DNA of 63,590 nt, the filler included, from Parasitella parasitica NRRL 2501 (lineage: Eukaryota; Fungi; Mucoromycota), in the NCBI GenBank assembly GCA_025201805.1. It is 7 parts of 7 records of this genome, joined end to end, with 100 filler letters (N's around TTAATTAATTAA, not from the genome) between each part and the next. Parts side by side here need not be neighbours in the genome. Positions count along the whole stretch, not along the records: positions 55,151 to 61,061 come from MU619340.1; 6 more parts are not named here. The stretch is one strand, 5' to 3'. Of the stretch, positions 25,724 through 63,590 are shown in pieces (the stretch's first letter is position 1; the number at the start of each line of letters is the position of its first letter). Made by a program: the position numbers and the translations under genes. The notes under the pieces were generated by a model. It searched no databases. It saw only the letters and a program-made list of their open reading frames with translations, and had not been told where the DNA came from.

Positions 25724-27524
25724 TTAAAATTTAGCGTTTAAGCATGGTAATGGCTGATAAGAGCTTTGTCTATTTGTTTTGAGCTGCTTAACATGTCTTC
25801 CAGTGCAGCTTTCTTGTCTGCATTTTCCACATTTGTTGATACAAAAAAATCTTTTGGAGCTTCCTGGACATTCGTCGATCTTGCAAACCGTGCAGTGTCT
25901 TTTTCTTTTTTTACTTGCAAAATTAACAGACAAAGAAGAAGTGATGTTACGCGGCAAAGGTAAAGAAAGCGAGCTTGAGATCTGTCTGGAGTGATACAAA
26001 GGTAAAATTTTTGGTAATTTAGAGGTCAAAGGTGAGAGTATACCAGCAGGAAAGTGTTGTTGTTGTGGAGCAGTAGGTGCTGACAAAGTCGAAATCGAAG
26101 TGTCAAACCTTGATGCATCTTCGACAAGCGCACGGACAGATTGAGATATTGCAATATTTTTCAAGACAGTGTTCCCATATTTTTTACGATCTTCTACAAT
26201 GTTGTAGTAGGCTCTTAGATGACCAGGAGTTTTGTAATAAATATTGCTGTTTGCAAGACAATACTTGGTGTTCCATATGAAGGCAAACAAATGGAAGTCT
26301 GGTTTTTTCGCATTGAATGGTTGATATATCTGCGTATCTTCATGGTTTTGTGTTTTCAAAAGTGTTTCAAACAGAAAATTTTCTTCGTTTGTGTGCACTG
26401 CCGCAACTGCGTAAAGTGTACCTTGACAACTGGAAAGAAATTGATACATAAATTTGCTTTTAGAGTATCCGATCGGTGGCAGTCGAATGGTAGACAAGGA
26501 TGCAAGTTCCATAATCCTTTTTTTGTCCGGCCTTTCTTTTGGTATTAGCTGCAATGTTGCAGGCTTTATGCCTATTTCATTGCATAGCACACGAGGCATA
26601 TCTACAATACCGAAGGTTTCATTCGTTTGCTTGAAATTTATAAAATTTCCATAACGCTCACAAGTGTAATCCATTACAGTTCCGTGACCAACCTCTGTTC
26701 TTAACATGTTGATGGCAAGTACGAGCCAAGGGCTATAATGGCTTTGATGCTTTAAGCCATACCGATTAACAGACCCGACCTAAGAAAAAAAGTAAAGTTT
26801 TTAAATTATAAATCATACTAAAAGATAAATCACTTACATTTATATTATGATATAGTCTATAGTCAGCCAAAATAGAATCTGTTAATCGCGTAGATGCATT
26901 ATATGATGCGAATCTGCGAACAATGTTCATATGACAGGCTCCTTCAACAGAACTAGTTCCTCGCGAACACTTGTAGGTCATCAAACCGTCCTTATCCAGG
27001 CCTTTTTCCGTGTAGAGAGCAGGACCACCAACGATATCAGAAACATGCCCTTCTTTTACAGATTTAAGAACATGTAAAGACATTTCCCTAGCTGCATCAT
27101 CAAAAAGCTGGCGGCCAGAATGCTCACATCTTAATGGGCCGTAGCTATCAAATAAGAATTTCAGAGTGGGGTAGAGCTTGGCTGGTTTTGGTATAAATCT
27201 TCTGACTCGTTCAAAAACCCAAGCAGGGTTAGACAGCATCCGTGTGTTCCAGTCGGTCCCTGTGCTCAATAAAAATGTTTCGATGAGAGCTTTATCACCT
27301 TGATCGCAAACATATAAGGCATCACGGAAGCGTCTCATAAAATCTTTATGCATTCCATGGGACTTGGAGATTTTGATCATGTCCATTAAATGAAAGCCAT
27401 CTTTCAAAACACGGGAAGGAATTGGCGTTTCTTCATCTGAATTGTGAATAGTTATGGCAGGTTGGGTAGGTTCGACTGGTTTGGTTGCAGAGTAATAAAC
27501 CCTTTCTGACGCCGTAAATAAATA
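25724..27524 (-). mobile_element. Transposase-like gene, probably Mutator-like DDE; 5' part lost in gap; intron ~26773-26838
   Basis: KDGFHLMD (DxFH), RGTSSVEG (TxxxE) and a C-terminal Cys cluster CTVC..C..C..CGKC..C. Confidence 0.6.
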
Positions 27525-27624
27525 NNNNNNNNNNNNNNNNNNNNNNNNNNNNNNNNNNNNNNNNNNNNTTAATTAATTAANNNNNNNNNNNNNNNNNNNN
27601 NNNNNNNNNNNNNNNNNNNNNNNN
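27525..27624. other. Artificial contig linker N44-TTAATTAATTAA-N44 (also 48061-48160, 52872-52971, 55051-55150, 61062-61161, 62290-62389)
   Basis: Identical 100-nt spacer with six-frame stop core repeated six times. Confidence 0.97.
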
Positions 27625-28249
27625 CGCAAAAGAAAAGCACCATCAAAACCAAAGAAGCCTGCCTCCAAAGGAACTGTCACTGGCCATTATATGAATTTTA
27701 TTCAGAAAACAATGGATGAAATGGATTGCATTCCGGAAATGAAAGGATATTATATAGTTATGGATAATGCACCAATCCATACATCTAACGAGATTGATAC
27801 TATGGTGACAGAGAGAGGATATAAGTGCATTTATCTCCCTCCTTACTCGCCTGAACTTAATCCTATTGAGCAATTTTGGTCCATAGTTAAAAATAAGGTC
27901 AAACGTAGTCAATTTCAAACCAAAGAGGATTTATCAACAAGAATAACTGAGGCTTGCAATAATCTTCCTCCAGAACATCTTCGAGCATTTGTACAACATT
28001 CGGTAAACATATTTGAAGATTGCTTAAAAGGCAATCCTATCTAATAAAATGTCACAAACAACTGTAAAAAATATCTACTGAGGATTGAAGAGACCGCCTT
28101 TTGAGAAAACAGTAACCGCCTTTTGAGAAAATTGTAACCGCCTTTTGAGAAAACAAAAACCGCCCTTTGGAAAAAAAAAATCCGCCTATTGAGAATTTTA
28201 AAAACCGCCCTTTTATTTAAAAAACCGCCCTTTAGTGTTGCGCTAACTG
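27625..28249 (+). mobile_element. Tc1/mariner (IS630-like) transposon 3' end: DDE domain, subterminal repeats and TIR
   Basis: VMDNAPIH and LPPYSPELNPIEQFWS (stop 28044); about 7 (A)CCGCC(C/T)TTT-type repeats 28094-28233; end ...GCGCTAACTG|TA. Confidence 0.88.
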
Positions 28250-45256: not shown

Positions 45257-46948
45257 TGGAAGAGAAAGAAATGAAAATGAAATAGAAAGCAAGAGATACC
45301 AAAACTTGCCCTAAATACAGAATCGGAGTCCTACTTATAAGCGGTGATCCTCATTCTTTAATACCTTGATCCCCTTTTGCTCCTATTCATCTCATTCTGG
45401 ACTATACCATTCATACTAGCCATGATTCGAAAGCTTAAAAATGAAGTGAATCAACAAAGAGAGAAATAAATGACAGCATATAGAAGTGAAAGCGTTGAAT
45501 TCCTGAAACATAGAGCATTGAAACTTTTATTTTTGTTTGGATATACGAATATACCAATTGCGCCAGCCTGAAAATTAAAGCCACCATCCAGGATGGTAAG
45601 CAGGTATATAATTAAGGTTGAGTGTACAGCAATTTGGTTTTTTTGCAATCTTCTTACACAAAACGATTTCCTTGGACACCACATTATCATGACACTCTAT
45701 TAAACAACGCCTGCCCAATGTGCATCCTTGAAAAATAGATGTTTGTCTTTAAAAATGATTTTTTATAGCTAAAATAAATGTTCGCTTCTATGAGACTTTA
45801 TAAAATGCATATTAGGTGAGGGCATATCGATAAATAATCTAGTTCAAGATGGTATTTATTTTAAAATATTGAAACGTTGTTCCCAAACAAGTAGCATGAT
45901 ATTTTACAGTAGGTTAAGGCTATTACTGATAAAAATAAGGGTGCCGTCAAAGAAAAACCTATAATTTAAGTTGAGACTAACGAGACGCAATACATATCTC
46001 ACTTTTTCTTGTTAATAGAACTTGAATTGATGCAAGATGTGCAGAGCGTATCGTACCGAAGCTTGTCTTCTATGTATGCGTTTCCGAATACAATTCTGGG
46101 GCAATATTGTAATACAAGATATTGACATGATACATTTATAAAATATACCCTTGATGGTAAGTGCTGATACAGTGAGAAATGCAGCCTCTTTTGCCTGACT
46201 TCCTGTCAAAGTCAGCTTGGTATATAGTAACCATCTTGCTATATTTTCGTTCTAGTTTATACAATGTATGGTCATATTATTCATCTTGTGTGGAGTTGCA
46301 TTGAAATAATACTGATCACATAAATTAGTCATGGTCAGCTCTGCCCATAAACTCGAAAACAGTTCTTGTTTATTTTCTGATGCGAATAAAAAGCAACACG
46401 TCTTGAAAAAAAAAAAGAAAGATCAGGTTACTTAAATCAACGATTGATGATAGCATAACACTGTATCCACAATTTCTGTAGATTGCAATGGCAAATAGAA
46501 ACAATGATTTTTTTTTTTTTGCAAAACTATTGAAGATAGCCATTAAATGAAGCAAATTTTTTCTATCAAAAGATGTGCAAGGTTCTACAAAATATTTTAA
46601 TAACAAATTGCTTGAACGTGATGAATTCTACACCTTTATAAATCTATCAAAGTTGCTTTGTGGCCTTTTCAAGGAAACAGCTTTTAAAATTGGAGCGTGT
46701 ATTTTATAGCAATCCTACAGACGTATAAAAAATATCAATAAAACGCAAAGGATCATACCAATTGGATAATGCTCATAAAAAAAAGCTCATCGGTAATATT
46801 AAAGGTGTTAAAACTACTTAAAGTGGCCATTTTTGCTTTAAAAAGGTTAAAAAAGCCAGCAGTTGTGGCTGAGGTTGAAAACCGGTTGTTCTTCACAAAC
46901 AATAAACGATCCTAATTTCAAGTTTTCTCTTTCCGATAAACAATTATA

Positions 46949-48060
46949 ATGCCTAAAGGAGGGGATCTGATTGGTGGAAACGCCAGCGATTCTCGACATA
47001 ATCCAAACAAACAAAAGGACCAAATGCGATCATATGCACAAATTCTGAAGTCGGATCAAACCAGGGACACCTTTGATCTGAAGTCGCTTACCTCAGTCGA
47101 GCTTGGTCAGCTCACTGAGGGTGGACAACTGTTCGTTCAAGCCAGGGACAAGCACTCGGTGGTGGTTTCAACCGAACAATTTACCGCATTGCAAATTAAT
47201 TTCAAGGATCTAGCATCTGTTCTGCGTACCCAGTTTCCGGATGCATTGGGTCTACGTATTCGAAATGTTAGTCAAACATCCAAGTACTTCGAAATCAACT
47301 TTCGAACTGACGCTGCTAGGGAGGCAGCCCTGAAAAAAGATTTTTCATATGAAGGAAAGAAAGTCATAGTCAGTCGTACCTTTCCCAAGGACACTACTAT
47401 TGTTCGGGTTAGTGTGAGCAACCTACCATATGAAGACGAAGCATACTTGCAGGAGCAAATGTCAAAAATCTTTGCGGCCTATGGTGAAATTCTCGAAATG
47501 GGTCTCTTGCATACGGTCCATGGACACTTCTTTACTGGACGAGGATTTGCTACTCTGAATCTACTTCCGGGTAAACAGTATGCCACTTTGGGACCACAAA
47601 TCGATTCTTGGGAAGCTGGGGAAACGCTCAAGATCACCTTTACTGGTATGAAGCCTACTTGTAGCCGTTGTCATGTCACGGACCACGTTTTCGGTAACTG
47701 CCCTGTCATGAGCCAGCGTTTGAAATGTTGCTATATCTGTCAAAAGTCGGACCACTTGCAGGCTAACTGTCCTGATGCATTTTGGAATCAACGAAAGAAG
47801 GCTGCAAAGTTGAATTCAGCACACACATCAGCACACCAGCAGAAGCCTGTGGCCAAGGCAATTGCACTTAAGACCATCATCACTGCCGAGGCAAATGAGA
47901 ACAAGGTCGACACTACGAAGGAAGCCGCTGCCTTCATTACTGGAATTATTCCAGCAGCCATTGCAACTATGCCTCCCGACTCGACATTAGCTAAGGAAGC
48001 GTCAGACTCCCCATCAGTTCCTACGGTGGAAGGCAAGGAGGTTATGGTGAATGATGAGAT
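46949..48060 (+). mobile_element. Non-LTR retrotransposon (L1/Tx1-like) ORF1, truncated by gap
   Basis: Intronless ORF with RRM-like VSVSNLPY region and two CCHC knuckles (CSRCHVTDHVFGNC, CYICQKSDHLQANC). The next contig starts with A16, a possible tail. Confidence 0.75.
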
Positions 48061-49021
48061 NNNNNNNNNNNNNNNNNNNNNNNNNNNNNNNNNNNNNNNN
48101 NNNNTTAATTAATTAANNNNNNNNNNNNNNNNNNNNNNNNNNNNNNNNNNNNNNNNNNNNAAAAAAAAAAAAAAAAGGCGTAACCAATTTTTTAATACGC
48201 CAGTGACCGTATTTTTGCGTAAGCAGTAAATGCATGCAATATAATAAACAATATTAAGTGAGAAAACTAAGTTAAAAACTATAATCTGGTGAACCAAAGC
48301 TAAATGACAAGATAGACTTGATATTGTGGAATATGATACTTTTTATGTTTTAAAAATTGGTTGCTTGGATGAAAAGTTATTTCAATTTAAAATCTTGACG
48401 AAAAGAGGAAAAAATAAGAAACACAGCTATTTCAAGTCTCATAGCTCTTCTCCAGACTTCTAATTATGACTGCCAAGTTTGAAAGCATTGTAGCATTCGA
48501 ATGGTCTATTGTAATTAACATGTGGGTTGTTTCTCTTGTCTCTGCGCTGCTCAATACAAGCAACCAAAATTGAGAAATCTGCGACATACAGCAGTATCAT
48601 TTTAAAAATATTACGGTTAGAAGGTATATTGTATTTTTTATTGGTATTGTATAAAAATATGATACATATTCTGATCTATCTTGCAGTACTACTGATCTCT
48701 CAAAAGAGAAATGATTCCATGCTGATTTATCTCGGTTAAGTTACCAGCTATACCTCAAGAGCCTTTGATTGAGCACGCAGCTAAATTTAAAAAAGCAAAC
48801 GCATTTTTTTGTTCTGAATAATTCGGTTTGCCAAACAAACCCATTTCGAAACAATTTGATTGCATATTTGATGCCAAATTCAACATAAATTCTCCGATCA
48901 TAATACAACACATTCATACAAGAGTTGGTGCTCTATCTAACTGTGAAAAAATCAAAGTGAATTGTAGTGAAAAATTAATGGATTAAACAGAAAAATCGAA
49001 ACTTTGTTTTTTAGGCCAGAA

Positions 49022-49405: not shown

Positions 49406-52400
49406 TTCTCCCCCACTCAAACTCAACGCCAGTTCTAGTTGTTGATACACTAGGTTTTCTAAAGTCTATTTTTCTTTGATCTTTCGGTAATTGCATTGGT
49501 TTGGTTTGATTGTCCAAATTTGCGCTTGCCTTGTGGGATGTCAATTGAGTTTGCTAGACTTAGTTGCGGATGACGTTTGCTCATCTGTCTTGTAATGACC
49601 CCACGAGAACTGTGTGAAGCCTGAGTTGAATGAGGAAGGGTGGTGCTGTGCTTAACGGTTGTCGGACTAGAGGTGGAGGAAGAAGGTTTGTTTGTATTAA
49701 CTTTTGACCTATCGTCAAATTCATGTCCAAATTAGGAGCTGCCACAATTTCTCGGTATATATTACTAGGGGTGAAATCATTTTTGATATGGCTTTTGACT
49801 TGTTTTCTTTTGTCATTGTTTATTTTCTTTACTTCTACGGGTTTACCTGCATGATCTTTTTTTACTTTTTTCCAATATTCAATAATAATGAATTCGGTGT
49901 CAGTGAAATCATTTGCTTTGACCCATGAATTATGCTCCTTGCCATAGTTTTTCCACTTTACATTTGATATTCGCGATTTTGAGGGTCTCCGCTATCTTGG
50001 ATTATGGCTTCGACCTCAAACAGCTCGCTCTTGGGAATGATCTCCTCTTGGTTTATTGCTTTTAGCTCTGAAGCCACGTAGTTACGGGACATTAGCATGC
50101 CTTCTTCGTCACGTAAGATATATACGCCACCGTCGTTTTGTCTAATCACTTAGTATGGGCCTACGTACGACGGTGCAAATGCGTTTGTTTTATGTAGGAT
50201 TTTATGCATCACGTATGTCCCTGGTTTAAAGTTGACTTGAACATTTTTCTGATCAATTTTACCATTTAACTTATCAGTGTAACGCTTGTGCTGCTCTGCG
50301 ACCGCTGGGAACACTAATTGACTCATATAGTCGATACGCTTCAAAAGCTCGTCATTTATCATATAACGCTTACTCTTCAACTTGCCGTCCGCATCATAAT
50401 AATTGATTGGAGCGTTCATATTGCGAGCATACATCAGCGAGAATGGGGAGCTTTGTAGCTTCTTCGAAATTTTGTTGTTTATCATCAGTGCTGTTGTGCC
50501 AGGTCTTGAAATTGAGCACAGCAGGTGATTGTATATGATATAAAAATATAAGAATGTAATAAAGACTTCGTTTACCAGATACAAAACTATTGATTTATTG
50601 ATTGACAAGAAGCTGTCTAGTTATATTGGAATAAATCTATCTAAATCAATCTATAAAATACAATCAGGTCATGTTTGACATTTAATTGTCAAACAAGATT
50701 ATAACACAGTAGTAGTCAGAGCAAGACCTATTTCTATATTTAATCAGCTAATCGTTATGAATGTGAATCATTCATCGATAAGTTGAGCTTCGCAATTTAG
50801 AATAAGTAGAACCCAAATAGATGGTTTCTTATACAAGACATTCTATTGAATACTTCTATTTACTAGATAGAATAATCGATGCCATTTAACCTTAGATCCG
50901 ATTAGGAACGGTTGCCATGACAACTGAGTTGAAATAGTGGTAACCATGGTATTCTATGGATACAACAAGTGCACAGATGGGTAAATAATTGTGCCAATCC
51001 TCAATATTTCCATTGAGTAATTTTGCTAACGTTTTCTTTACAGTACCCACGTATCTTTCAGCGATACCGTTTCCTTGCGGGTGGTATTGTGTAGCATAGC
51101 GTTTTTCAATTTGCATGGATTGAAACAACATCGTATGCAATTGATTCGACCATTCTGCACCATGATCCGACACTACGAAGAATCTGGGCAGACCGATGAT
51201 GCCAAAAGCATCAATCATCGCAATAGCTACGCTTTTAGCTGTCTTGTCAACTAGAGGTTTCAGTATGACAAATCGAGTACAAACGTCCACCATTAGTAAT
51301 AAGTATGTGTATAGGTTGGAGTTTGACGAGAAAGAGCCCGCCAGATCCATTACATATCCATCGCCAGGAAGGTTATACACGGAGCGTGAGGGTAAATAAC
51401 CTTTTTTCTTTATGTTGAATTTAACACATAGTGCACAGCCGCTCACAACATCAATTGCATCCTGTAGTAGTCCTGGCCAATTCATGTTTTGGTTCCTTAT
51501 CGACTTTACAATATTGTCAGCCCCAAAATGGCCACTTTCGTGGTGGATCTCTTTCAGTAAAGTTTTTCTACTGGGTTCAGGCACGATCACATAATTTTGG
51601 TCACTATATTTATGAGCACTTTGGACGAATGCAACCATTTTAGTTGAGACATTGTTGGTAAAAGGTTCGACATCTTTTGGGCGGTAGGAGCACTTCCGGT
51701 TGCCGGATGTATTGGCAAATGTAAAACCTTTGCGCTGTTTGTATGATTTAGATTTATTATCCCCATCTCTCCCGTCAGAAGAATCAGCGAAATAGTATAA
51801 GCGCGAGAGGAAGTCAGGCAATACATTTTGTAAACCGCTCAAATGGCGAATTTCAAACGTGTGTCGTAGTAACGTGTCAAAGTAATCGACGAAATGTTCG
51901 TTGATAGGGGTTTGGGTGAACAGAAATGTTAGACTACGATGGTCAGAATAGAGGATAAACTCTCTACCAAAGAGGAAATCGTCGTAAAGCTTCAAGGCCA
52001 TAGTAATGGCAGCGAGCTCCCGGCGTTGTACGTGCCAGTTGCGTTCGCTCTTAGATAAGCTACGGCTGTGGAAAGCAATATAGCGGATTTGTGTGATAGT
52101 GATGGGTGCATCATCACTATTCTGGTTCTTATTGGTTTGAGTATATTGCAGCTCCTGGAACAAACAAGTGCCTAAAGCATGATCACTGGCATCGACAGCT
52201 ACAATCAAAGGTAATTTCGGGTCGAATGGGGATAGCACTAATCTGGAAGCTAATACTTCTTTGATAGTGTCGAAATCGTGTTTTAATTCCGGCGTCCATT
52301 GAATAGGAACTGAATCACCAATATTGCGGAGGGCATCCAAGCGCCAAGTAAGTTTGCTAACCATGGGGCAGTGGTCGTGCATATAGGTAAACATGCCAAG

Positions 52401-52871
52401 GCAAGATTTGAGCGCTTTTGGATGTTCTGGATATGGCACATCGCAGATGTTGGTTAATCGTTTAGTGCAAATGCTACGACCCTGACGGCTAATTGTTTGG
52501 CCCAGTACCACAATAGCTGTCTTAGCAATATGAGCTTTGGCCATGTTCAAGATAAGTTTGTTTTCAGTTAGGCGGTTGATGATGATGCTTAATTGTTTTG
52601 CATGTAGTTCCATATCATCCGAATGTGTTATACAATAAACATCATCAATATATGTCAAACAAAAGGGTAAATCACCTAGGATATCGTCGAGTAAGCGACT
52701 CCAGGCGCTGCCAATAAAAGTAATCCCGTATGGACAGGAGGCAAAGCAGTAAGCAGTATTACGGTGCTGGAAGCTGGTTTTGACCTGATCTGACACATTT
52801 AGGGGTAGTCTCAGGTACGCGGTCGTAACGTCAATACAAGAATAGATTGCAGCACCTGTTGCTTGTTTGAA
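49406..52871 (-). mobile_element. Decayed Ty3/Gypsy (chromovirus) pol: RT, RNase H, integrase, chromodomain
   Basis: RT YIDD; RNase H VDAS..RELAAI..YSDH..DFLSR; HHCC zinc finger; integrase MDL..SDHG..GIAER; GPY; chromo FEVEAII..KWKNY..NSWV. In-frame stop at 50150, frameshift ~49958 and an LTR insertion. Confidence 0.92.
50492..50967. mobile_element. Solo LTR (476 bp) inserted in the Gypsy integrase
   Basis: TGTTGT...ACAACA with perfect TSD AGTGC (50487-50491, 50968-50972). Removal restores LPICA-LMINNK. Confidence 0.9.
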
Positions 52872-52971
52872 NNNNNNNNNNNNNNNNNNNNNNNNNNNNN
52901 NNNNNNNNNNNNNNNTTAATTAATTAANNNNNNNNNNNNNNNNNNNNNNNNNNNNNNNNNNNNNNNNNNNN

Positions 52972-53228
52972 TATTAAATCACAGCATTTCTAGGACAGAC
53001 CTATCTTTCTATTTTACATTAAAGAGAAGATTGGGTAGGATGTCTTCCCGACATCCCGCGATCTGATCTAGATGTATTCTTTGAATAAGCCTGGAACCTT
53101 GCAAGAGGTCCAATTACAACTTGTAGCTTATTCCTTATTTGTAAAAGAATTACCAAGAATTAATATCATGATCCGTGCATTATGACTAAGTTAGATATGA
53201 CATATGCAGCTTTTATATGGATACAACA
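52972..53228. mobile_element. LTR family A, partial (cut by gap)
   Basis: Near-identical reverse complement of part of 62936-63406; ends GGATACAACA. Confidence 0.85.
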
Positions 53229-53260
53229 AATTTGCAACGCGCGAGAAACTACCTATACTT

Positions 53261-54128
53261 CTCTTCGGTAGTATAATTCAAAGTTTTTATTTTTATTAGG
53301 GTACTCTAGTAGCACGCGACCTATGGGCCATTTTTGCTAGTACCTGGGAAACAGCAAGGAAAGCATACTATATAATTGGGAGGAGGAGGGAGGGTAAATA
53401 CTATGTATATAGATAATGAAAGGTGAAGATTTTTTTTTTTAGCTGGGTGTTGAGATCTGCAAGATCGAAATAAGAAAAGTATAATATAAAACGTTGAATT
53501 AACGAGATACGAAAACTTGAGATTACTTTATTAAAGATTCAACTTTGCATCTGCTATTTATACTTTTTGCAACAACATAAATTTTTGGTGACTTATTTAA
53601 AATACTAGTCGATAGTAATCGATAAGAATAATTTGCAAGCAACATCATATCTTTAACAGGGTACGATATACTATTATACTACAAGGTTATTGATCTTTGA
53701 TCTGACAGTACCTTATTGTTTGTCAATCATACAGATCTGTGTTACAGATAACCTTCCCGATTTGAAACAAAGACTTTATTCTCCTGTTTCGACCAGTATA
53801 ACAACACATCATTGGACAATCTCCAATCTTTAATTGAAGTACACTATCATGATCTCCTAACCTACATTATGGCAGATCACTGGGGATACGATACGACTTT
53901 ATTAAAACCTGGGCGGATGCCTGACAAGACCTCAATACTAAACCTACCAACCCGGCAACCGAGAGCCAAGAACATAGCGGCATTAAAACCTTCGCGAGAA
54001 ATTGGAGTTTACTGTAGAGAATTAGTACATGCAACAATTTTTTTTTAGCGGATAGTGAGAATCGAACTTGGGACTTCAAGAAACACGTTTTTTATAGCCT
54101 AGTGTACAAACCACTGAGCTAAAGGACC
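53261..54128 (-). mobile_element. tRNA-headed SINE-like element interrupted by a solo LTR
   Basis: Head GGTCCTTTAGCTCAGTGGT (A box)...AGTTCGATTC (B box) at 54128-54048, without a proper cloverleaf. Tail motif ATAAAAACTTT-N6-TACTACCGAAGAG shared with the upstream element. Confidence 0.55.
53448..53879. mobile_element. Solo LTR, family B (432 bp)
   Basis: TGTTGAG...GATCA with perfect TSD CTGGG; near-identical to 55882-56313. Confidence 0.92.
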
Positions 54129-54135
54129 GTAGCCC

Positions 54136-55050
54136 CTCTTCGGTAGTAGAGACTAAAGTTTTTATATATTTAAATAATGCAGTTATAAAGATCTTCGCTT
54201 ATTAGCCATTTGATCAACTACGATGATAATAAGATAGTGTGTGATAAAATATAAAAAACTATGATTACAAATGAATCGATAGGAAAAAAAAAGAGGATAG
54301 TATGAGTAAAATATGGGTGTGGAACACACAGTTTATGCGTCCAAATCATGGTCTTGAGAGTCTGCTATTTGGTGTGCAGAGTTGGTACGACGATTGAAGA
54401 AGAGAGCTACAATATCATCAGGGATGTGAAATTGCAGATCTTCAGTTTGGTTAAAGTATCTTATGATGGATGATCCCAGATGAGCAGGTTCTAATGTTGA
54501 GCAGATTTTGAGCATTCGATTATAATATATACGAGTAGCCATGTCTTGTTTCTGTTCTACTGATAATGTAGCATGTCTGGGGTCACAAATCACACTTTCA
54601 TGATGAGGATCGAAAGCGAATGGAGTTACTTTGCCTTGTGCAAATATTGTTTTGATTGTTTCGGCATAAGCATTGTGAACTAAGAGGGATACAACTCCTC
54701 TAGTAGGAAAACTAACAGCTAAAACTCGTCTGTTAGAGATGCCCATGATAGCTAAACGCTTTCTAACTATGCGTTGGTTAGTTCGTGTAGAATTTTTGAT
54801 GTGTATAAATTGATAGCCGGTTGGCTCAGTGTTTGCTGTAAACCCACGGTATGCCCAATCCATCATAATTTTAGTGGGAGTTGAGGAGGCAGGTTGTTTT
54901 TTCTGAGTTTTTGATTTTGAAATGCTCTTTTTTTTGCTTTTTGTTTGAGCATGCACAGTTGCGTTTCGTTTAACAACAGTGGTCCATGGTGTTTCCGTTG
55001 TATCCAATGATGGTGCAGCAGTAGGAGGAGGGGGACATTGAGTGTTGTTA
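54136..55050 (-). mobile_element. Probable non-LTR retroelement ORF1-only unit (ORF 54333 to >55050) with ~200-nt 3' UTR
   Basis: Intronless basic ORF open to the gap. GYQFIHI..RKRL..GISNRRVLAVSFP..VVSLLVHNAY recalls a Mucorales repeat-ORF family (from memory). No ORF2 before the tail motif. Confidence 0.5.
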
Positions 55051-55881
55051 NNNNNNNNNNNNNNNNNNNNNNNNNNNNNNNNNNNNNNNNNNNNTTAATT
55101 AATTAANNNNNNNNNNNNNNNNNNNNNNNNNNNNNNNNNNNNNNNNNNNNAATTATCTCTGGAGCTTGAGTTAACGCTAGACTGGTAAATGCAACGTTAG
55201 CGATTAGCTTGACTGTTAAATTTAACACTTTCTTTCGCCATGGTGTTATCAATGCTACTAATTGCTACTCACAAGCGATTATCGTATTTATCACTGGTCA
55301 TCAATTTAGTCTTTGTGATAAAAGCATCACTAGTGATAAAATGGTTTCCCACCAGTCATCCAGTAAAACACCTAATTACTAGTTATTAGAACTGATGATA
55401 AATGTGAAAAAAAATAGCACTGAAGTTAGCCATGGTGCTAATCATTTTAAGGAGTTTAGAAAGCCTATCCATTTTATTTGATTAAAAGAGATACGAAGAA
55501 GAGCTAAATCTATATGATTTGCAAACTAGTTACATCAGTATTATTGGAATGTTCTCATATATATGAAACCAGTTGCAATTTAGATGGAATGGTAGAGTTA
55601 TCCTAGTGTTGCAGTCACCAGGGTATCTGTTTTTTAGAAAGCAATTTAGCTTAACTTTGACGTCTATCTTATTATACTCTCATCCTATCCCTAGAGTAAT
55701 AGATTCATGTTTAAGTTATTTCGTATGAATAAAACTATTTTTTCAATTCCTAACTTGATATGTTCAGTCTTTCGTTATTTTGTATGGTTTAACCTATTTT
55801 TTTTATCCCCAGGTTAATTATTCATTTTTCAGTTATGTTTTCCGCTTTAACCAATTTTTCCTATTCTATCTTGAATATTCA

Positions 55882-56313
55882 TGTTGAGATCTGCAAGATC
55901 GAAATAAGAAAAGTATAATATAAAACGTTGAATTAACGAGATACGAAAACTTGAGATTACTTTATTAAAGATTCAACTTTGTATCTGCTATTTATACTTT
56001 TTACAACAACATAAATTTTTGGTGACTTATTTAAAATACTAGTCGATACTAATCGATAAGAATAATTTGCAAGCAACATCATATCCTTAACAGGGTACGA
56101 TGTATTATTATACTACAAGGCTATTGATCTTTGATCTGACAGTACCTTATTGTTTGTCAATCATACAGACCTGTGTTACAGATAACCTTCCTGATTTGAA
56201 ACAAAGACTTTATTCTCCTGTTTCGACCAGTATAACAACACATCATTGGACAATCTCCAATCTTTAATTGAAGTACACTATCATGATCTCCTAACCTACA
56301 TTATGGCAGATCA
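55882..56313. mobile_element. Solo LTR, family B (432 bp)
   Basis: TG...CA ends with perfect TSD ATTCA. Confidence 0.92.
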
Positions 56314-56881
56314 ATTCATTTTTTAGTTATTTTTTCAAGATTAATCCATTTATTCTATCCCTTATCTAATTTTTCATTACTACTGTCTTTTTTGGGTTTC
56401 TAGGAAAAAAATGACAGGGTTTATGATAATGAATTTCCAGGTTTCTGATAAAGTGTCGGGAGTTTCTGAAAAATCTGAGGGAGATAATGCTAAAAGCTGA
56501 GAAGACTATGGCGAAAAAAGCGTTAAATTCAACAGTCGAACTAATCGCTAACGTTTTATTCACCAGTCTAGCGTTGAATCTAGTTCCAGGGATAATTTAA
56601 CCGTTAAGCGATAAACTGAACGTGAGAGTTCGGGGTAACGGGTTAGCGATAAATACAATGATGGTATTTGAACAAGCTTTAAAGCGCTAGATTTAACGAT
56701 AGCATTAAAACAAGCTCTATAACGATCGATTTAGCGACAGCAATAAAACAAGCCATACAGCAACGGATTTAACGATAGATTTCTAGTAGGAATAAAACTA
56801 GCACTAGCTTTTCATGATATCGCAATAAATCAAGCTTTTCGGTGCTAAATCAATCAAAATTTTTTATATTTTACAGTATAG

Positions 56882-57194
56882 TGTTGAGATCTGCAAGATC
56901 GAAATAAGAAAAGTATAATATAAGACGTTGAATTAACGAGATACGAAAACTAGAGAATACTTTATTAAAGATTCAACTTTGCATCTGCTATTTATACTTT
57001 TTACAACTACATAAATTTTTGGTGACTTTATTTAAAATACTAGTCGATACTAATCGATAAGAATAATTCGCAAGCAACATCATATCCTTAACAGGGTACG
57101 ATGTATTATTATACTACAACAAGGCTATTGATCTTTGATCTGACAGTACCTTATTGTTTGTCAATCATACAGATCTGTATTACAGATAACCTTC
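56882..57194. mobile_element. LTR family B, truncated and fused to the virus-like ORF
   Basis: Matches the first ~310 nt of family B up to ACAGATAACCTTC, then switches to unrelated coding sequence. Confidence 0.88.
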
Positions 57195-60100
57195 GAAACC
57201 AACTAAACGATTTATATACTTTGATAAATCTATATTGTGTGATAAAGTTGTTGAAAGAGCCGATTCCATGTATTTCCTAGTGTTCTTCTTCTCTTTCCAA
57301 GTTCCTGTGATACCCCTCTGCAGTTCCGTTGTAAAATGCTTACCTCCTTTTAACGATACACTAACTTTTTGTGTCTCCCCAGCCTCCATCATTTTAGACC
57401 AATCTCCCATTGCTCCCTCTTGTTCTTCTTCATACATAGCATCTAAGATTTCTTGTAAGCTTTGCTGATTTTCAGCCCTCATACGTCTACCTGTTCTTGC
57501 ATGTACTTCATAATTCATGTAAAGAACATCGTCATCTTCGTTGTTCTCATTATAAAACATAGCATGCTTTCCGCTTTTTATAGCTCTATAATTACTTATT
57601 TGCTTTTGAAGAAACTGTTTTTTATGTGTTCGCGCCTTTCCTGCTGCTTCGGTTATCTTAGTTTTTGTTTTAAACTTTAAATCATGTACCAACTTGTACG
57701 TGAAGACATTACCCGTTATTATCTCCACTTCATTTCTAAAACGAGGATGCACTTCCTTCATAAGCTGCTTTTGTGCTTGTATTAAATCAAATACATTCAT
57801 GCTGTTATAATTTGCTGATATATAATTTATGTACTTTAGCAAAGCCTGAATTTCTCTTTTTTCATAACCTGCTGTGCGTAACTTACCACTGTATCTTTCT
57901 GTGCAAGCTTTTACGAAATCCTGATCTATCTTAATTGTTCCTATTGTTTTTTCCTCTATCTCCTTCATTTTCTTTAAAAGTTCGTACATTGCCATATACA
58001 CTGCATACTTATCTTTTCTGAATAAAGCCAGACTTTTAACTACACCACTTCACTTTCTGTTACGATTTCTCCGTTTATAGTCCCTTCCAACAAATATTCA
58101 TACGTGTTCTTAAGTGCTTGTTTTTCTAGTGTTGTTAAATTATAATAATCATAGCTTGTCGTGCATATGCTCACTATAAGATCATGCAAATACGTTTCGT
58201 TGCTTTTCCTAGTTTTGTATCCTGCGTTATGTGCTAAAAAAATTGATTGCATGACTTTATAAGTCCAGCTGTCATTGTTCTCATCTACATCATGTGCTTT
58301 CATTATTTCCTGTTGTTGCTCCAGACCTAATTCTTCCGTATATTCCTGCAACACATCCATGACTCTCAATAACTTTTCTTGATTTAATGGTTCTATGTTC
58401 AATTCAGATGTTACTAAAGTTATCACATCTTCACCTCTTATCTTACTTTTCTTTTTGTTTTCTTTTGTTACTACTTCCTCCAACTTATCTTTACGATCCA
58501 CTGTTTCAGGTAGCTTTCGGCCACTCTTATTTGTATTAAAACAAAAGTTATATACCTTGCTTAGCAAACCGTACCTTTTGGTAAGAGCAAACAACACAAC
58601 TAAAATGGTTACTAGTAAGAAAATTAATAAATACTTACTTCTATACAAAGTTTGCAAATTCCATTTCTTCCCAGGATACTTAGCTTTTAACTTTTCTAAA
58701 TCTGCCATAGCTTGCCTAAGATTTCCATTTGGTAATTGTCTACCGTTCTCCGTAAAATATCTTTTGTATGCTTCGTAACCTTCTCTACTAATTCCTAAAT
58801 TATTTTGAGGTATCTTATAACCTTTGAGCTTTGCTATCTTTGCCTCTAAAATTCGTATCATTGTTTTACGAGTGTTTATTTGTTCATCCAGTTTTTTCAT
58901 CTCTTCTTGTTCCATTGCAATTGCTCGTTCAAATGCTTGTTCTCTAAAGATTTTTGATATAGCACTAGAGGCCATCTCTCTCATGTTGTCCATTTGGTTC
59001 CGTGATGAATTGTATTGATCTTCAAGTATTTGTATTTCAGTTTTCTTTATTTTCCTAAACATTTCTAAATAGTCGATCCGATCAGTGTCCATCGCCTGCA
59101 CTGTTTCTGTCATAGCTGCTATTTCTATTGCAATAGTTTCACCTATTTGTTCTTGAATTTTCTTTACATGTTCCGGACTGATAGTTTTCTCAAATAATGC
59201 ATATAATGTATTACGATCCATCATATAGTCTGATAACGGTACATTTATGAGTACGTCTTTTGATATGTTGCCATCTTTAATTGTTATATTCATCCTCTCA
59301 AAATTTGATATCATTCCTCTAGGTATTAAACTTTTATTAAAAACCTTACTGCAGCGAAACGCAGTAAAAAAAGTGTAAAAAAGCAAGATACGATTAAAAT
59401 CCTTCTTTATTTTGAAAGTAGATTGAATGTGCAATAAGCTGTTATTTTATATCTCTATTTATATTATTTGAGTGTCGTCTTACTAGCAGACAATTGTTTC
59501 GTTATTTCTTAACCGTTCCATTATTCTTTATATGTTGTGTTATGAATTCTAATCAGCCGTTCTGGCTTAGTAGTAAACTATCATACTACTTGTTGGGTTG
59601 ATTAGAGATGGTCATTCATCAGGTCAATAGGATAATTCTATCGTAGCTATTCTAATCTTACGTGAGTGTGAATATTATTGAGTTGTTTATTGACGTTGTT
59701 GATCTAACGATGGATCAAGGACGGCATTTGAAACATAATTCTTATTTATGCGATTAGGAAGCTTTCATTGTTTGATGAATTGTTCCTTTTCAGGCTTTAG
59801 TTTGTGGCACAACATGCTATTTTGACATAATATGTCGATTTCTATCCCTGCTATATTTGTTTATCTTTGTAGTCATAGCTTCTATTGTTGGGAAGATGAC
59901 AATATTTTATGATGGGAATCTAGTCTCGTTCACTTCACTTACTTTCCATATCCATTTCTGTCATATATTGTCGGAACTCAAAATAGTTGTAATAAAAGGC
60001 CCCTTGCTCATCCAACATACCTAAAGTCATGAGTGGATGTAGAGTACTTGCTAAGATATTTTTGATTTTAATATCTGTTATTCTCCCTACTAGTTGCGCT

Positions 60101-60357
60101 TCTTCATAAAAATAGTCATGTACTATTAACTTACATTTAAGACAACGCACATAGGCAGCAAATCGCTCTATTTGATCTAAACTTTCATGAGCGGTATAAT
60201 TTACTGGGTTGAAAACATAATTACCACTGCGCGTTCTACCCACTTTTCCTCTGCGCTGCAATGATTCCTGTTCGCTGATTGGTACTGTCGTTGTCAGTAT
60301 CGCTTTGTCAATATAATTAATTACAGGTTTCATTTTCATACTTGTATCGAAGATGTT
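57195..60357 (-). pseudogene. Endogenous viral element: poty-like (+)ssRNA virus polyprotein fragment (SF2 helicase C-terminus, TM segment, further domains)
   Basis: FDTSMKMKPVI..ISEQESLQRRGKVGR (viral DExH motif VI) followed by a CI-like tail. Intronless, A-rich coding strand. Frames join after removing 59350-59937 plus one TSD and one AAGTG duplicate near 58050. Confidence 0.72.
59350..59937. mobile_element. Solo LTR (588 bp) inserted in the viral ORF
   Basis: TGCAGCGAAACG...CGTTCACTTCA imperfect inverted ends; perfect TSD CTTAC (59345-59349, 59938-59942). Confidence 0.85.
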
Positions 60358-60551
60358 TGTTGTATCCATATAAGGGCTACATATGTCATATCTAACTTAG
60401 TCATAATGCACGGATCATGATATTAATTGTTGGTAATTCTTTTACAAATAAGGAATAAGCTACAAGTTGTAATTGGACCTCTTGCAAGGTTCCAGGCTTA
60501 TTCAAAGAATACATCTAGATCAGATCGCGGGATGTCGGGAAGACATCCTAC
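60358..60551. mobile_element. LTR family A, partial; truncates the viral ORF upstream
   Basis: TGTTGTATCCATATAAGGGCTAC... matches 62936 onward and is cut at ~60551 by a CACCATGG-ended element. Confidence 0.88.
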
Positions 60552-61482
60552 ACCATGGCCAACTTGTGTGATAAAATCCTAACTACTGGTGATGCTTTAG
60601 CAACTAGGTGTCCAAAATAAGCACCAGTGATTAGATTTTACACACAAAATGTAGAACTCAATCACTCAAACATCGTAAGCTTCAATTAGAACTCCCTTTT
60701 AGTCTTTCGCGAACCATTTTCCACTGACGTTATGCTCAAAAAATTGCAATCAGACGTTTATTCATCACTAAACTTTAAAAACAATCACTAAAAATAGAAT
60801 AAGTGATTGATTCATCACCAAGCATTTAAGAGTATCACTGTGAATAAGAAGAGTGATTAATTCGTCACCAAGAACTCAAAAAAATCACTGAAAAGGTAAC
60901 ACCACAAGGCAATAATAAAGATGTTCTTCAGTTAATAGGAAATTTTCTTCATATACATACTACATCACATAAAAATAACTAGTAGAATACTTGATATTTT
61001 GCACAGAATGCAATTGATCCATATTGATACAGTTATTATTAATGTATTTTCTATAGAAAATNNNNNNNNNNNNNNNNNNNNNNNNNNNNNNNNNNNNNNN
61101 NNNNNTTAATTAATTAANNNNNNNNNNNNNNNNNNNNNNNNNNNNNNNNNNNNNNNNNNNNGGATTCGAACTATTGACCTTCCCTGTCATAAGCCGAAGC
61201 TCTAACCGGGCAGGACAAAAGAGACACTACGTTTTGCTATTTTCTTATCTTATCCTTACTCTACTCTCTTTTATTTTATTTTTTCTTCTTCTTACCCTTA
61301 CTCTACTCTCTTTTACTCTACTCTCTTTTATATACGCCCTTCTTATTCTTTGACCTCCTTGTCTTAAGCTTACGATGTTTGAGTGTTTGTGTGTAAAATC
61401 TAATCACTGGTGCTTGTTTTGGACACCTAGTTGCTAAAGCATCACCAGTAGTTAGGATTTTATCACACAAGTTGGCCATGGT
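60551..61482. mobile_element. ~120-bp near-identical inverted repeats (60551-~60681 and ~61366-61482) on either side of a gap; DNA-transposon termini
   Basis: ACCATGGCCAACTTGTGTGATAAAATCC...AAACATCGTAAGCTT and its reverse complement. Confidence 0.7.
61162..61216 (-). pseudogene. tRNA-derived fragment (Ile-TAT-like or SINE head)
   Basis: Minus strand GGTTAGAGCTTCGGCTTATGAC..AGGTC..AGTTCGAATCC; broken stems; cut by gap. Confidence 0.45.
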
Positions 61483-62935
61483 TGGTGTATTTTTTCTATT
61501 CGTTCATCAACAGTGACAACATACTATCACATTATTCTATTGGTTATTACAGGTACCATCTCAGTTGTAGTAAATAATTGAAGATATAAATACCCTGTAC
61601 TTATATCATAATAAACGATATATTTCTTTTATTGTTCGGATATAGTTGAAAGCTGTGAATTCTTACAATTCTCTTTTTCTTGTATTGAAATATCTGAAAT
61701 ATACATCACAAATTTTGCAAAACATCCGGACCATTAATCCACCTACTGTATGCATAATAGCAGTTATATGCAAATGCATTGAGGTGGATATATAAAACGT
61801 TTTGCCCTTGATTATAGCATATTGCGCCATTTCATGTACATTCACGATCTCAAGTTACCAACGCTTGACGCTCTTCGCTAGATCCTCTTCTCGATAAAAT
61901 AAATGTTTGCATGCAAATTTTCAATAACAAATTTTCTTTCTTATTTTGCTTTCTATAAAAAATTTTAAATGCTTCTGGGAGAGTTAACAGATTCACAGCC
62001 ACTGAATGACAGGAACTTCTTTCGGATTATTGGGAGAAGCTTGAGCCTGCAGGCCAAGTGTATGGATAGTGGACTTTGTCCAAATTTATTCATTCAGAAC
62101 TATGCATTAATGTACTATTTTATTCGTTTTTTTAAAAAAAAAAACTCGCCATCATTTCATTGGTATGTATGATATTAAAGCTTTATTCAGCACATCATAG
62201 CTGACTAATTTCTAAAATTAAGGTGCTTTAAACGCGTACGCCTACACCAATGAAGACGACACGAGAGCGTTCATTAATTTGCGCTTGAANNNNNNNNNNN
62301 NNNNNNNNNNNNNNNNNNNNNNNNNNNNNNNNNTTAATTAATTAANNNNNNNNNNNNNNNNNNNNNNNNNNNNNNNNNNNNNNNNNNNNCATATAATAGA
62401 TTTTGATCTCTCATGATATCAAAGCGGCTCATCATAAAAGCAAGATCCCTTGAGATCAGTAACTTGAATATTTTTGGTGAGAAGCTATATGGTATATAAG
62501 CACATACAGTATGTAGGTATATGTTTTATAATTAAAAATCATATTTCTTCGATTGTTCTCTTTTTAATTATATATAATGATGCATATCAAAATTGAAGAG
62601 AAATCCACGTAAAAAATTAACTGGATAAATCTAGAAGTGGAATGCAGATCATCATAGTAAATGTATTTCACAAATAGATGAATTCCGAGACTAATTTAAT
62701 TTTTTTACTGCTGTTTAAGTGCATATTTTTTCGAATAATTAAGATGGTATGGTGGTATCTCAGCAATAGAACATTAGCAATTATGTTTATATAGTACAGA
62801 ACTTAATTCAATATATATTTAAGATGAGACGTTCCCAGTTTTCAACGTCAGATTTAGGAACATGGTTTCTGTTGGCTCAAACTTCAATCACTCGTGCGAA
62901 TTACTGATCTGCACTACATAATAAATTTACATTAT

Positions 62936-63406
62936 TGTTGTATCCATATAAAGGCTACATATGTCATATCTAACTTAGTCATAATGCGCGGATCATGATA
63001 TTAATTGTTGTTGGTAATTCTTTTACAAATAAGGAGGAATAAAAGCTACAAGTTGTAATTGGACCTCTTGCAAAGTTCCAGGCTTATTCAAAGAATACAT
63101 CTAGATCAGATCGCGGGATGTCGGGAGGATATCCTACCCAGTCTTCTCTTTGATGTAAAATAGAAAGATAGGTCTGTCCTGGAAATGCTGTGATTTAATA
63201 AGGTTTGACACTTCTTGTCAAACATCAGATGTCATGTGGACAAACATCGATTAGGATATATTTTAGTATAAGTAGCGATCATATCTTATGTCAATAAAAG
63301 TCTTTAGGTTTGTATCTGGTTTTATTCAGAAAGTCTTTTTTATTACTTTATACAAATCTTATTTACATAATAACATTACGCAGCGCCCTTTGACACTGGC
63401 ACAACA
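62936..63406. mobile_element. Full-length LTR family A (~470 bp)
   Basis: TGTTGT...ACAACA ends; homologous to 15642-16103. Another copy begins at ~63548 and runs off the window. Confidence 0.88.
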
Positions 63407-63590
63407 TACATTTTCATCATTATTAATGATATGCTTGTTCGTGAAATATACATATAAATTTTGGCTACTTTTTAACAAAAATACAAGGTGTACGAGGAAT
63501 TGCCTAATATATTTAGTGTATTTTGCAATAATGTTCTTGATATGAATTGTTGTATCCATATAAAGGCTACATATGTCATATCTAACTTAG

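Follow-up and report, generated by a model that had tools for sequence, protein, structure and literature searches.

Relatives of the plant potyviruses have been described from fungi and oomycetes. These poty-like viruses, which include Switchgrass poty-like virus 1, have a short CI helicase without Poty-PP, and neither Mucor nor Rhizopus is mentioned in the paper (PMC13580087). [quoted passage not shown] The main text of that survey names only ascomycete hosts of Potyliviridae and does not contain the word Mucor; its Table S4, with 15 fungal EVE hosts, may include Mucorales. Here we describe a locus of the fungus Parasitella parasitica NRRL 2501 (assembly GCA_025201805.1) that very probably is an endogenous fragment of a poty-related RNA virus. 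Without its repeat parts it occupies positions 57195-60356 on the minus strand of the window, by which we mean the whole stretch of 63,590 nucleotides that was analysed.

In virga-like mycoviruses of the AfVlV1/RmVV1 type a poty-like CI helicase segment stands beside an alphavirus-like replicase on other segments (PMC11351042, PMC12282112), and CI-like helicases are described on segments of viviviruses as well as of AfVlV1 (PMC12282112). RmVV1 infects Rhizopus microsporus; its 3.8-kb segment for a DEAD-like helicase is similar to a genomic protein of Circinella minor, and proteins encoded in the genomes of R. arrhizus, Mucor plumbeus and C. minor resemble RmVV1 segments (PMC11351042). The helicase Hel1 of fusariviruses is poty-related (PMC9243621), and celavirus helicases cluster with flavi-like ones (bioRxiv 10.64898/2026.08.03.742603). 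From the Mucoromycota, a potyvirus-like sequence of Rhizophagus and EVEs have been reported (PMC7482067); the Mucoromycota EVEs listed in a further study are durna-like, with no poty-like element in that list (PMC12548735). No published potylivirid-type polyprotein EVE in Mucorales turned up in our literature search, most subscription journals lying outside it. The first-pass annotation of the locus had stressed that its host lies outside the classic plant host range. The host is indeed a fungus, but the surprise was overstated, since fungal poty-like viruses, EVEs of them in ascomycetes and a related helicase gene from a Mucorales genome had already been published.

An interrupted coding frame in genomic DNA

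Short contigs, linked through N spacers, make up the window, and the locus lies within the one at 55151-61061. Read from stop to stop, its minus strand holds three open reading frames (ORFs), at 59935-60396 (ORF1), 58040-59446 (ORF2) and 57180-58049 (ORF3), in agreement with the first-pass annotation. Long terminal repeat (LTR) sequence accounts for about the first 13 codons of this stop-to-stop ORF1 and for the final 5 of ORF3. Outside the repeats ORF1 comprises 138 codons (59938-60356), ORF2 435 codons (58043-59349) and ORF3 285 codons (57195-58049), in sum 858 residues. Given the local composition, the probability of such stop-free runs by chance is 6e-6, 3e-17 and 2e-11, respectively.

ORF1 and ORF2 are separated by a 588-bp insertion of the solo-LTR type (59350-59937), which starts with TG, ends with CA and is surrounded by an intact target-site duplication CTTAC (59345-49 and 59938-42). 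ORF2 is cut off from ORF3 by a frameshift, located where 5 bp are directly repeated (58055-58046). Both lesions had been noted in the annotation, and at either break the reading frames before and after it are in the register expected of one interrupted gene. The A-richness of the coding strand was likewise confirmed, with 37-42% A in the ORFs as compared with two host genes at 27-29%. The third codon position is C at a frequency of 0.09-0.13 in the ORFs versus 0.18-0.28 in nine host or transposable-element frames of the window. ORF1 to ORF3 share one foreign codon profile. Two disabling lesions and the lack of any in-frame stop across the 858 codons suggest that the insertion is young.

Sampled words of the sequence were present to 91-96% in six of 16 candidate sequencing runs (5 studies), none of them recorded as RNA; the other ten contained hardly any of the words. 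Neither observation bears on expression or on absence of the sequence. Four runs from four studies were mapped by way of their contigs; their run type is presumed to be DNA, and one of them may be the source of the window itself. In these runs the depth of the ORFs is 22-39 compared with 25-37 for unique flanks, as expected for a single-copy sequence, whereas the depth within the 588-bp insertion reaches about 900-1800; the repeats bounding the locus are also high-copy. A diverged copy of the insertion was found at the end of a 7-kb contig. In all four runs one contig crosses the frameshift without a gap and continues over the 3' LTR junction, and a second contig spans the junctions between the insertion and ORF1 and between ORF1 and the 5' LTR. 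The frameshift is real in the genome and not an assembly error. The junction between ORF2 and the insertion was entered by 28-29 letters only, less than the 31 letters that our rule demands, and was not counted as bridged; of the LTR-ORF joins, which the annotation had named as a point on which its reading could fail, the others are covered in 4/4 runs. Because the ORFs have single-copy depth and contigs run across the junctions, the sequence is integrated in the genome. It is an EVE, virus-derived coding sequence joined to host DNA at genomic depth, and it has decayed after integration by transposon insertion, frameshift and truncation.

At its 5' end the viral part is truncated by a high-copy LTR-like repeat of about 200 bp (60357-60552, minus strand), whose flanks form no target-site duplication. 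The 3' end is fused to the 3' part of a 432-bp LTR family (56882-57194, minus strand). This junction falls on a shared word of 5 nt, some 120 nt into the LTR, which fits a template switch or a later deletion alike. An intact solo copy of the 432-bp LTR with its own target-site duplication is present at 55882-56313. All four runs also contain a contig that joins the start of this LTR (56313) to the end of the 200-bp LTR (60357), skipping 4043 bp, with a depth of 51-66 and a shorter side of 28 letters. It could represent another locus or a virus-free arrangement.

Within ORF2 a tract of 58 bp (58967-59024, minus strand) has 12 sites at which the window departs from each of the four runs, whereas no difference is seen over the remainder of the 2.2-kb contig. 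Ten of the 12 sites are third codon positions (binomial p 0.0005), and nine of the ten changed codons are synonymous. The tract shows purifying selection on the ORF2 frame and, as the differences are mostly synonymous, indicates by a separate line of evidence that this frame is truly coding. In one run a second contig covers part of it. The tract may stem from a second viral copy of about 80% identity, introduced by gene conversion or by an assembly mosaic.

The helicase end encoded by ORF1

An unfiltered phmmer search with ORF1 among 1.84 billion representative proteins gave five matches, of which four (P0001-P0004; E 2e-7 to 8e-4) are real. The fifth was rejected as a bacterial repeat artefact. 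Three of the four, 2375-2479 aa long, are polyproteins in which DEAD, Helicase_C, Peptidase_C4 and RdRP_1 domains are present, joined in one case by Poty_coat; one of the three clusters with Switchgrass poty-like virus 1. The remaining match, P0002, is a 989-aa helicase with a trypsin-like protease, encoded by a complete ORF on a 3183-nt contig (L019). Its layout matches that described for AfVlV1 RNA3; P0018 is a related partial helicase, and both are JGI proteins. We call these two segment-type, for P0002 on the basis of its architecture and for P0018 on the basis of its grouping with P0002. The ORF1 alignments cover residues 2-126, well beyond motif VI (about 60258-60235, minus strand) and over most of the roughly 95 residues that follow it, with 25-33% identity to poty-like helicases.

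The region around motif VI was compared with 200 regions taken from loci and proteins (204 contained the motif, 4 of them lacking flank); the potyvirid and flavi reference sets had been picked by motif patterns. ORF1 scored 34-49 bits on 13 partly redundant poty-like regions, a set chosen by similarity to ORF1, which flatters these scores, and 38 and 43 bits on the two segment-type regions. Scores did not exceed 24.7 bits on 120 potyvirid regions and 21.9 bits on a mostly flavi- and pestivirus set. With a profile of the poty-like regions ORF1 came first at 58 bits, ahead of 187 other regions (best 47.7). The matches persisted when motif VI was removed. These comparisons support the view, already taken in the annotation, that ORF1 is the end of a poty-like rather than a flavi-like helicase of superfamily 2.

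Other searches returned little. In Pfam nothing scored above the cut-off in ORF1-3; Poty_PP and Peptidase_C4, two domains that the annotation had proposed to look for, were not detectable, nor were HA2, the OB-fold or Flav_NS3-hel_C, the last of which does match a pestivirus control. Word-based protein searches gave no match for ORF1 (90 candidates) or ORF2 (6900 candidates, longer proteins only), and an alignment search matched 3 of 7993 protein candidates. Locus scans with ORF1 alone, P0002 and P0001 found none, and no close relative was found in scans of IMG/VR and JGI. The predicted folds are of low confidence (predicted local distance difference test, pLDDT, 55 and 41), and fold searches gave no significant match; the top Foldseek row, with E 0.016 on the pLDDT-55 model, was a fragment of Sisal-associated Virgavirus D.

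A tree of 27 rows and 132 columns was built from ORF1, seven poty-like, two segment-type, 14 of the 120 potyvirid and three pestivirus sequences; vivivirus, jivivirus, celavirus, fusarivirus Hel1 and RmVV1 sequences are not among its rows. ORF1 has a branch length of 2.37 and stands outside the Potyviridae clade (support 100/97). Approximately unbiased (AU) tests rejected no alternative: p was 0.19 for ORF1 with the poty-like sequences, 0.35 with the Potyviridae and 0.28 with the pestiviruses. A tree of 40 rows gave no resolution, with cellular and pestivirus rows beside ORF1. The best topology of the helicase tree, a check proposed in the annotation, places ORF1 outside the plant Potyviridae and does not make it a member of the poty-like clade. 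ORF1 agrees with the Potyliviridae, in which the CI-like superfamily 2 helicase lacks Poty_PP, with the helicase end only being present here; the Potyviridae traits, CI with Poty_PP and a recognisable 6K2 and VPg, are lacking.

The region downstream of the helicase

ORF2 likely encodes the remainder of the helicase, followed by a helical stretch, one membrane helix and a further region. The single transmembrane helix predicted by a hydropathy scan (58592-58648, minus strand) lies about 340 residues after motif VI and is likely a 6K2-like anchor. In the poty-like polyproteins a membrane helix is found at +259 to +273 or +604 after motif VI; P0002 has none.

When a profile of six whole poty-like polyproteins was run against all 1122 ORFs of at least 30 aa in the window, ORF1 ranked first (E 4e-15) and ORF3 second (0.023). 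The matches are colinear: ORF1 matches positions 949-1072, ORF2 1223-1314 with its residues 212-304, and ORF3 1324-1424 with its residues 134-267 (7.6 bits). The level of the ORF3 match was reached by 1/1000 residue shuffles and 0/1000 block shuffles, that of the ORF2 match by 1/1000 of each. The ORF3 match stops on the E/S junction of the profile, 144 positions before the catalytic GDCG; the end of ORF3 had been likened by eye to the VPg/protease junction of the matches before the profile was tested. ORF3 would accordingly consist of about 130 helical residues, a predicted VPg-like region (about 57650-57264, minus strand) and the predicted first 20 or so residues of a protease. We take the colinear match as moderate support for the proposed domain order, i.e. 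helicase end, likely membrane anchor, about 250 residues, predicted VPg and predicted protease start. The ESM Atlas gave no usable match for ORF3, and its fold prediction was not usable either.

If the profile match is right, about 250 residues between the membrane region and the VPg-like region would be without counterpart. At least 826 residues follow motif VI without a protease site, and the fragment ends before any catalytic motif. In one of the polyproteins, P0004 (L008), the stretch from the helicase to the membrane helix is longer by about 340 residues, and the distance from motif VI to the protease is 949 residues in P0004 versus 575 in the others. Judged from P0004, the helicase-to-protease region of poty-like viruses appears to tolerate large inserts.

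Origin of the fragment and its meaning

In its extent the fragment resembles the CI-to-VPg block of the Potyliviridae, the family assignment being open between the polyprotein type and the segment type. [quoted passage not shown] It differs from them by its position on a long branch outside the sampled clade, by the extra residues before the VPg-like region, by a longer stretch without protease site than in most sampled members, by a host that is likely a member of the Mucorales instead of an ascomycete, and by the lack of an RdRp. The plant Potyviridae share the predicted order CI-6K2-VPg-NIaPro and the type of motif VI, but not the host, the clade or the level of helicase similarity. The annotation's interpretation is supported in part: its claim of an endogenous fragment from a poty-like positive-strand RNA virus is upheld. 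The closest relatives are not plant potyvirids.

Beside the choice of the reference set mentioned above, several results weigh against a potylivirid polyprotein as the source. The tree puts ORF1 outside the seven-member poty-like clade (95/98) and groups it loosely with the segment-type helicases P0002 and P0018 (79/75). Once motif VI is removed these two also lead the scores, with 26.9 (P0002) and 17.4 bits versus 9.7-16 for the poty-like regions. In the whole-polyprotein search ORF2 ties with a host frame at E 0.15, its match is partly an effect of the hydrophobic helix, and the colinear match, at 5-8 bits, is one pass among about eight profiles. A profile of the VPg-like region from four sequences failed on ORF3 (below 0 bits; shuffles up to 10), a profile of the helicase C-terminus found nothing in ORF2 or ORF3 (609 and 527 of 1000 shuffles were as good), and three potyvirid profiles (CI end, 6K2, VPg) matched neither. 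The strict published cleavage motif (R/K)-X-(F/Y/W)-(Q/E)/(A/G/S/N/M) occurs 0 times in the 858 residues; a looser form occurs six times, twice at the predicted VPg ends, and the Potyliviridae motif is described as loosely conserved. The whole-polyprotein profile detected no protease, RdRp or capsid remnant among the window ORFs; of the traits that mark the Potyliviridae, the filamentous capsid and the tandem papain-like leader proteases do not occur in the fragment or the window.

Some of these results would be explained if the locus were an integrated helicase or helicase-protease segment, like RNA3 of AfVlV1 and RmVV1, from a virga-like mycovirus whose genome is divided among several segments. 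The poty-related superfamily 2 helicase of RmVV1 RNA3, AfVlV1 RNA3, vivivirus VP5 and the jiviviruses, the Mucorales host of RmVV1 with the similar proteins in Mucorales genomes, the tree, the best match of the region after motif VI and the Virgavirus D row in Foldseek all agree with such an origin. Yet P0002, the sole complete segment-type sequence compared, is without the membrane helix and far shorter downstream of the helicase, its protease lying 547 residues after motif VI, while here none is reached by +826; a profile of the two segment-type proteins matches nothing in ORF2 or ORF3, and the VPg-like match is to polyproteins. The comparison is also less direct than it may seem, as the segment-type label of P0002 and P0018 is our own and RNA3 of RmVV1 and AfVlV1 was compared by description only. 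Viruses of this kind have companion segments for a methyltransferase, an SF1 helicase and an alphavirus-like RdRp, with termini shared among the segments; the fragment lacks both ends. We consider a segment origin less likely and, with moderate confidence, favour a monopartite potylivirid-like donor, the fragment then coming from the middle of a single polyprotein.

A virus with another superfamily 2 helicase, be it a flavi-, pesti- or jingmen-like NS3, a celavirus, or the accessory helicase of a fusarivirus or hypovirus, is improbable as the source. NS3 helicases are the top sequence matches in the PDB (6m40, E 0.043) and the AU test does not reject ORF1 with the pestiviruses, and the reference set is without both celaviruses and fusariviruses, whose relevant helicases were introduced above. 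Against solved NS3 structures, though, the profile matches are concentrated around motif VI, the flavi- and pestivirus regions score well below the poty-like ones, and none appeared in the search of 1.84 billion proteins; for the fusariviruses, ORF1 of RsFV4 is described with 825 aa and has no membrane helix (PMC9243621). Even less probable, and largely refuted, is a decayed retrocopy of a cellular DEAH helicase or a transposon protein, with ORF2 and ORF3 unrelated to ORF1. The surrounding region is dense in transposons, the second PDB match is a fission-yeast DEAH helicase (E 0.085), and the ESM Atlas returned a top cluster without name at 0.91 followed by WHD_HA2/HA2_C clusters at 0.87-0.90. 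Atlas scores of about 0.9 count as no more than leads, and the S2H domains of viruses are known to be related to HrpB-type helicases (bioRxiv 10.64898/2026.08.03.742603). Cellular DEAH helicases as best matches had been named in the annotation as grounds for giving up the viral origin; no cellular helicase was found at E 0.001 among the 1.84 billion proteins, HA2 and OB-fold matches are lacking in ORF1-3, and the ORFs are single-copy, intronless, in register and of a common foreign codon profile.

For the poty-related viral fragment that we favour, the following course of events can be proposed. To be copied into DNA, an RNA virus that has no reverse transcriptase of its own depends on a retroelement of the host. 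The virus likely infected the fungus, likely one of the Mucorales, and its RNA would have been copied into DNA by the reverse transcriptase of a resident retroelement. This copy would then have been inserted into the transposon-dense region, where LTRs afterwards cut both ends and split the frame. In its present state the locus is likely an inert, young pseudogene that might yield small RNAs.

Regarding the neighbourhood, which is rich in LTRs, a Ty3/gypsy-type pol fragment with reverse transcriptase, RNase H and integrase (Pfam) is present at 50892-52919 on a neighbouring contig, and directly beyond the spacer next to it the 200-bp LTR recurs at 53035-53230. ORFs in 46940-48112, with two CCHC-type knuckles, and in 54333-55094 have no Pfam match; both look like the gag/ORF1 products of non-LTR retroelements. 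In 25724-28044 there are two ORFs that resemble transposases but match nothing in Pfam, with a DDE_3 (IS630/Tc1-type) fragment across the spacer. The sequence 60660-61058 is a high-copy repeat with a depth of about 1100-2000, a 131-bp part of which recurs inverted at 61366-61482. Rfam gave no match in 52972-63590, this repeat included.

The locus reveals no new mechanism, as EVEs of RNA viruses in Mucoromycota were already known (PMC7482067, PMC11351042, PMC12548735). New are the divergent lineage, the additional 250 or so residues and the likely Mucorales host. One may go further and suppose, as a tentative idea that we regard as doubtful, a third family-level branch of the Patatavirales infecting Mucorales, placed between the potylivirid polyproteins and the virga-like helicase-protease segments and carrying an unknown domain of about 250 residues between anchor and VPg. 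In that case the divergent tract in ORF2 would imply the capture, in this species, of two or more variants with about 80% identity, and the living virus may still circulate. The relatives of the potyviruses would then extend to an early-diverging fungal lineage, and the fungal origin of plant potyviruses would be strengthened. Host assignment is the weak point of the proposed fungal descent of potyviruses, and the 2026 survey used RdRp-bearing EVEs. An integrated fragment without RdRp, in a genome that is likely of the Mucorales, bears directly on the host in a way that RdRp-based EVE surveys miss, and ORF1 to ORF3 can serve as baits for the living virus in Mucorales RNA data. The fragment is likely the trace of a recent infection in which a mould, likely of the Mucorales, was the host of an undescribed virus related to the plant potyviruses.

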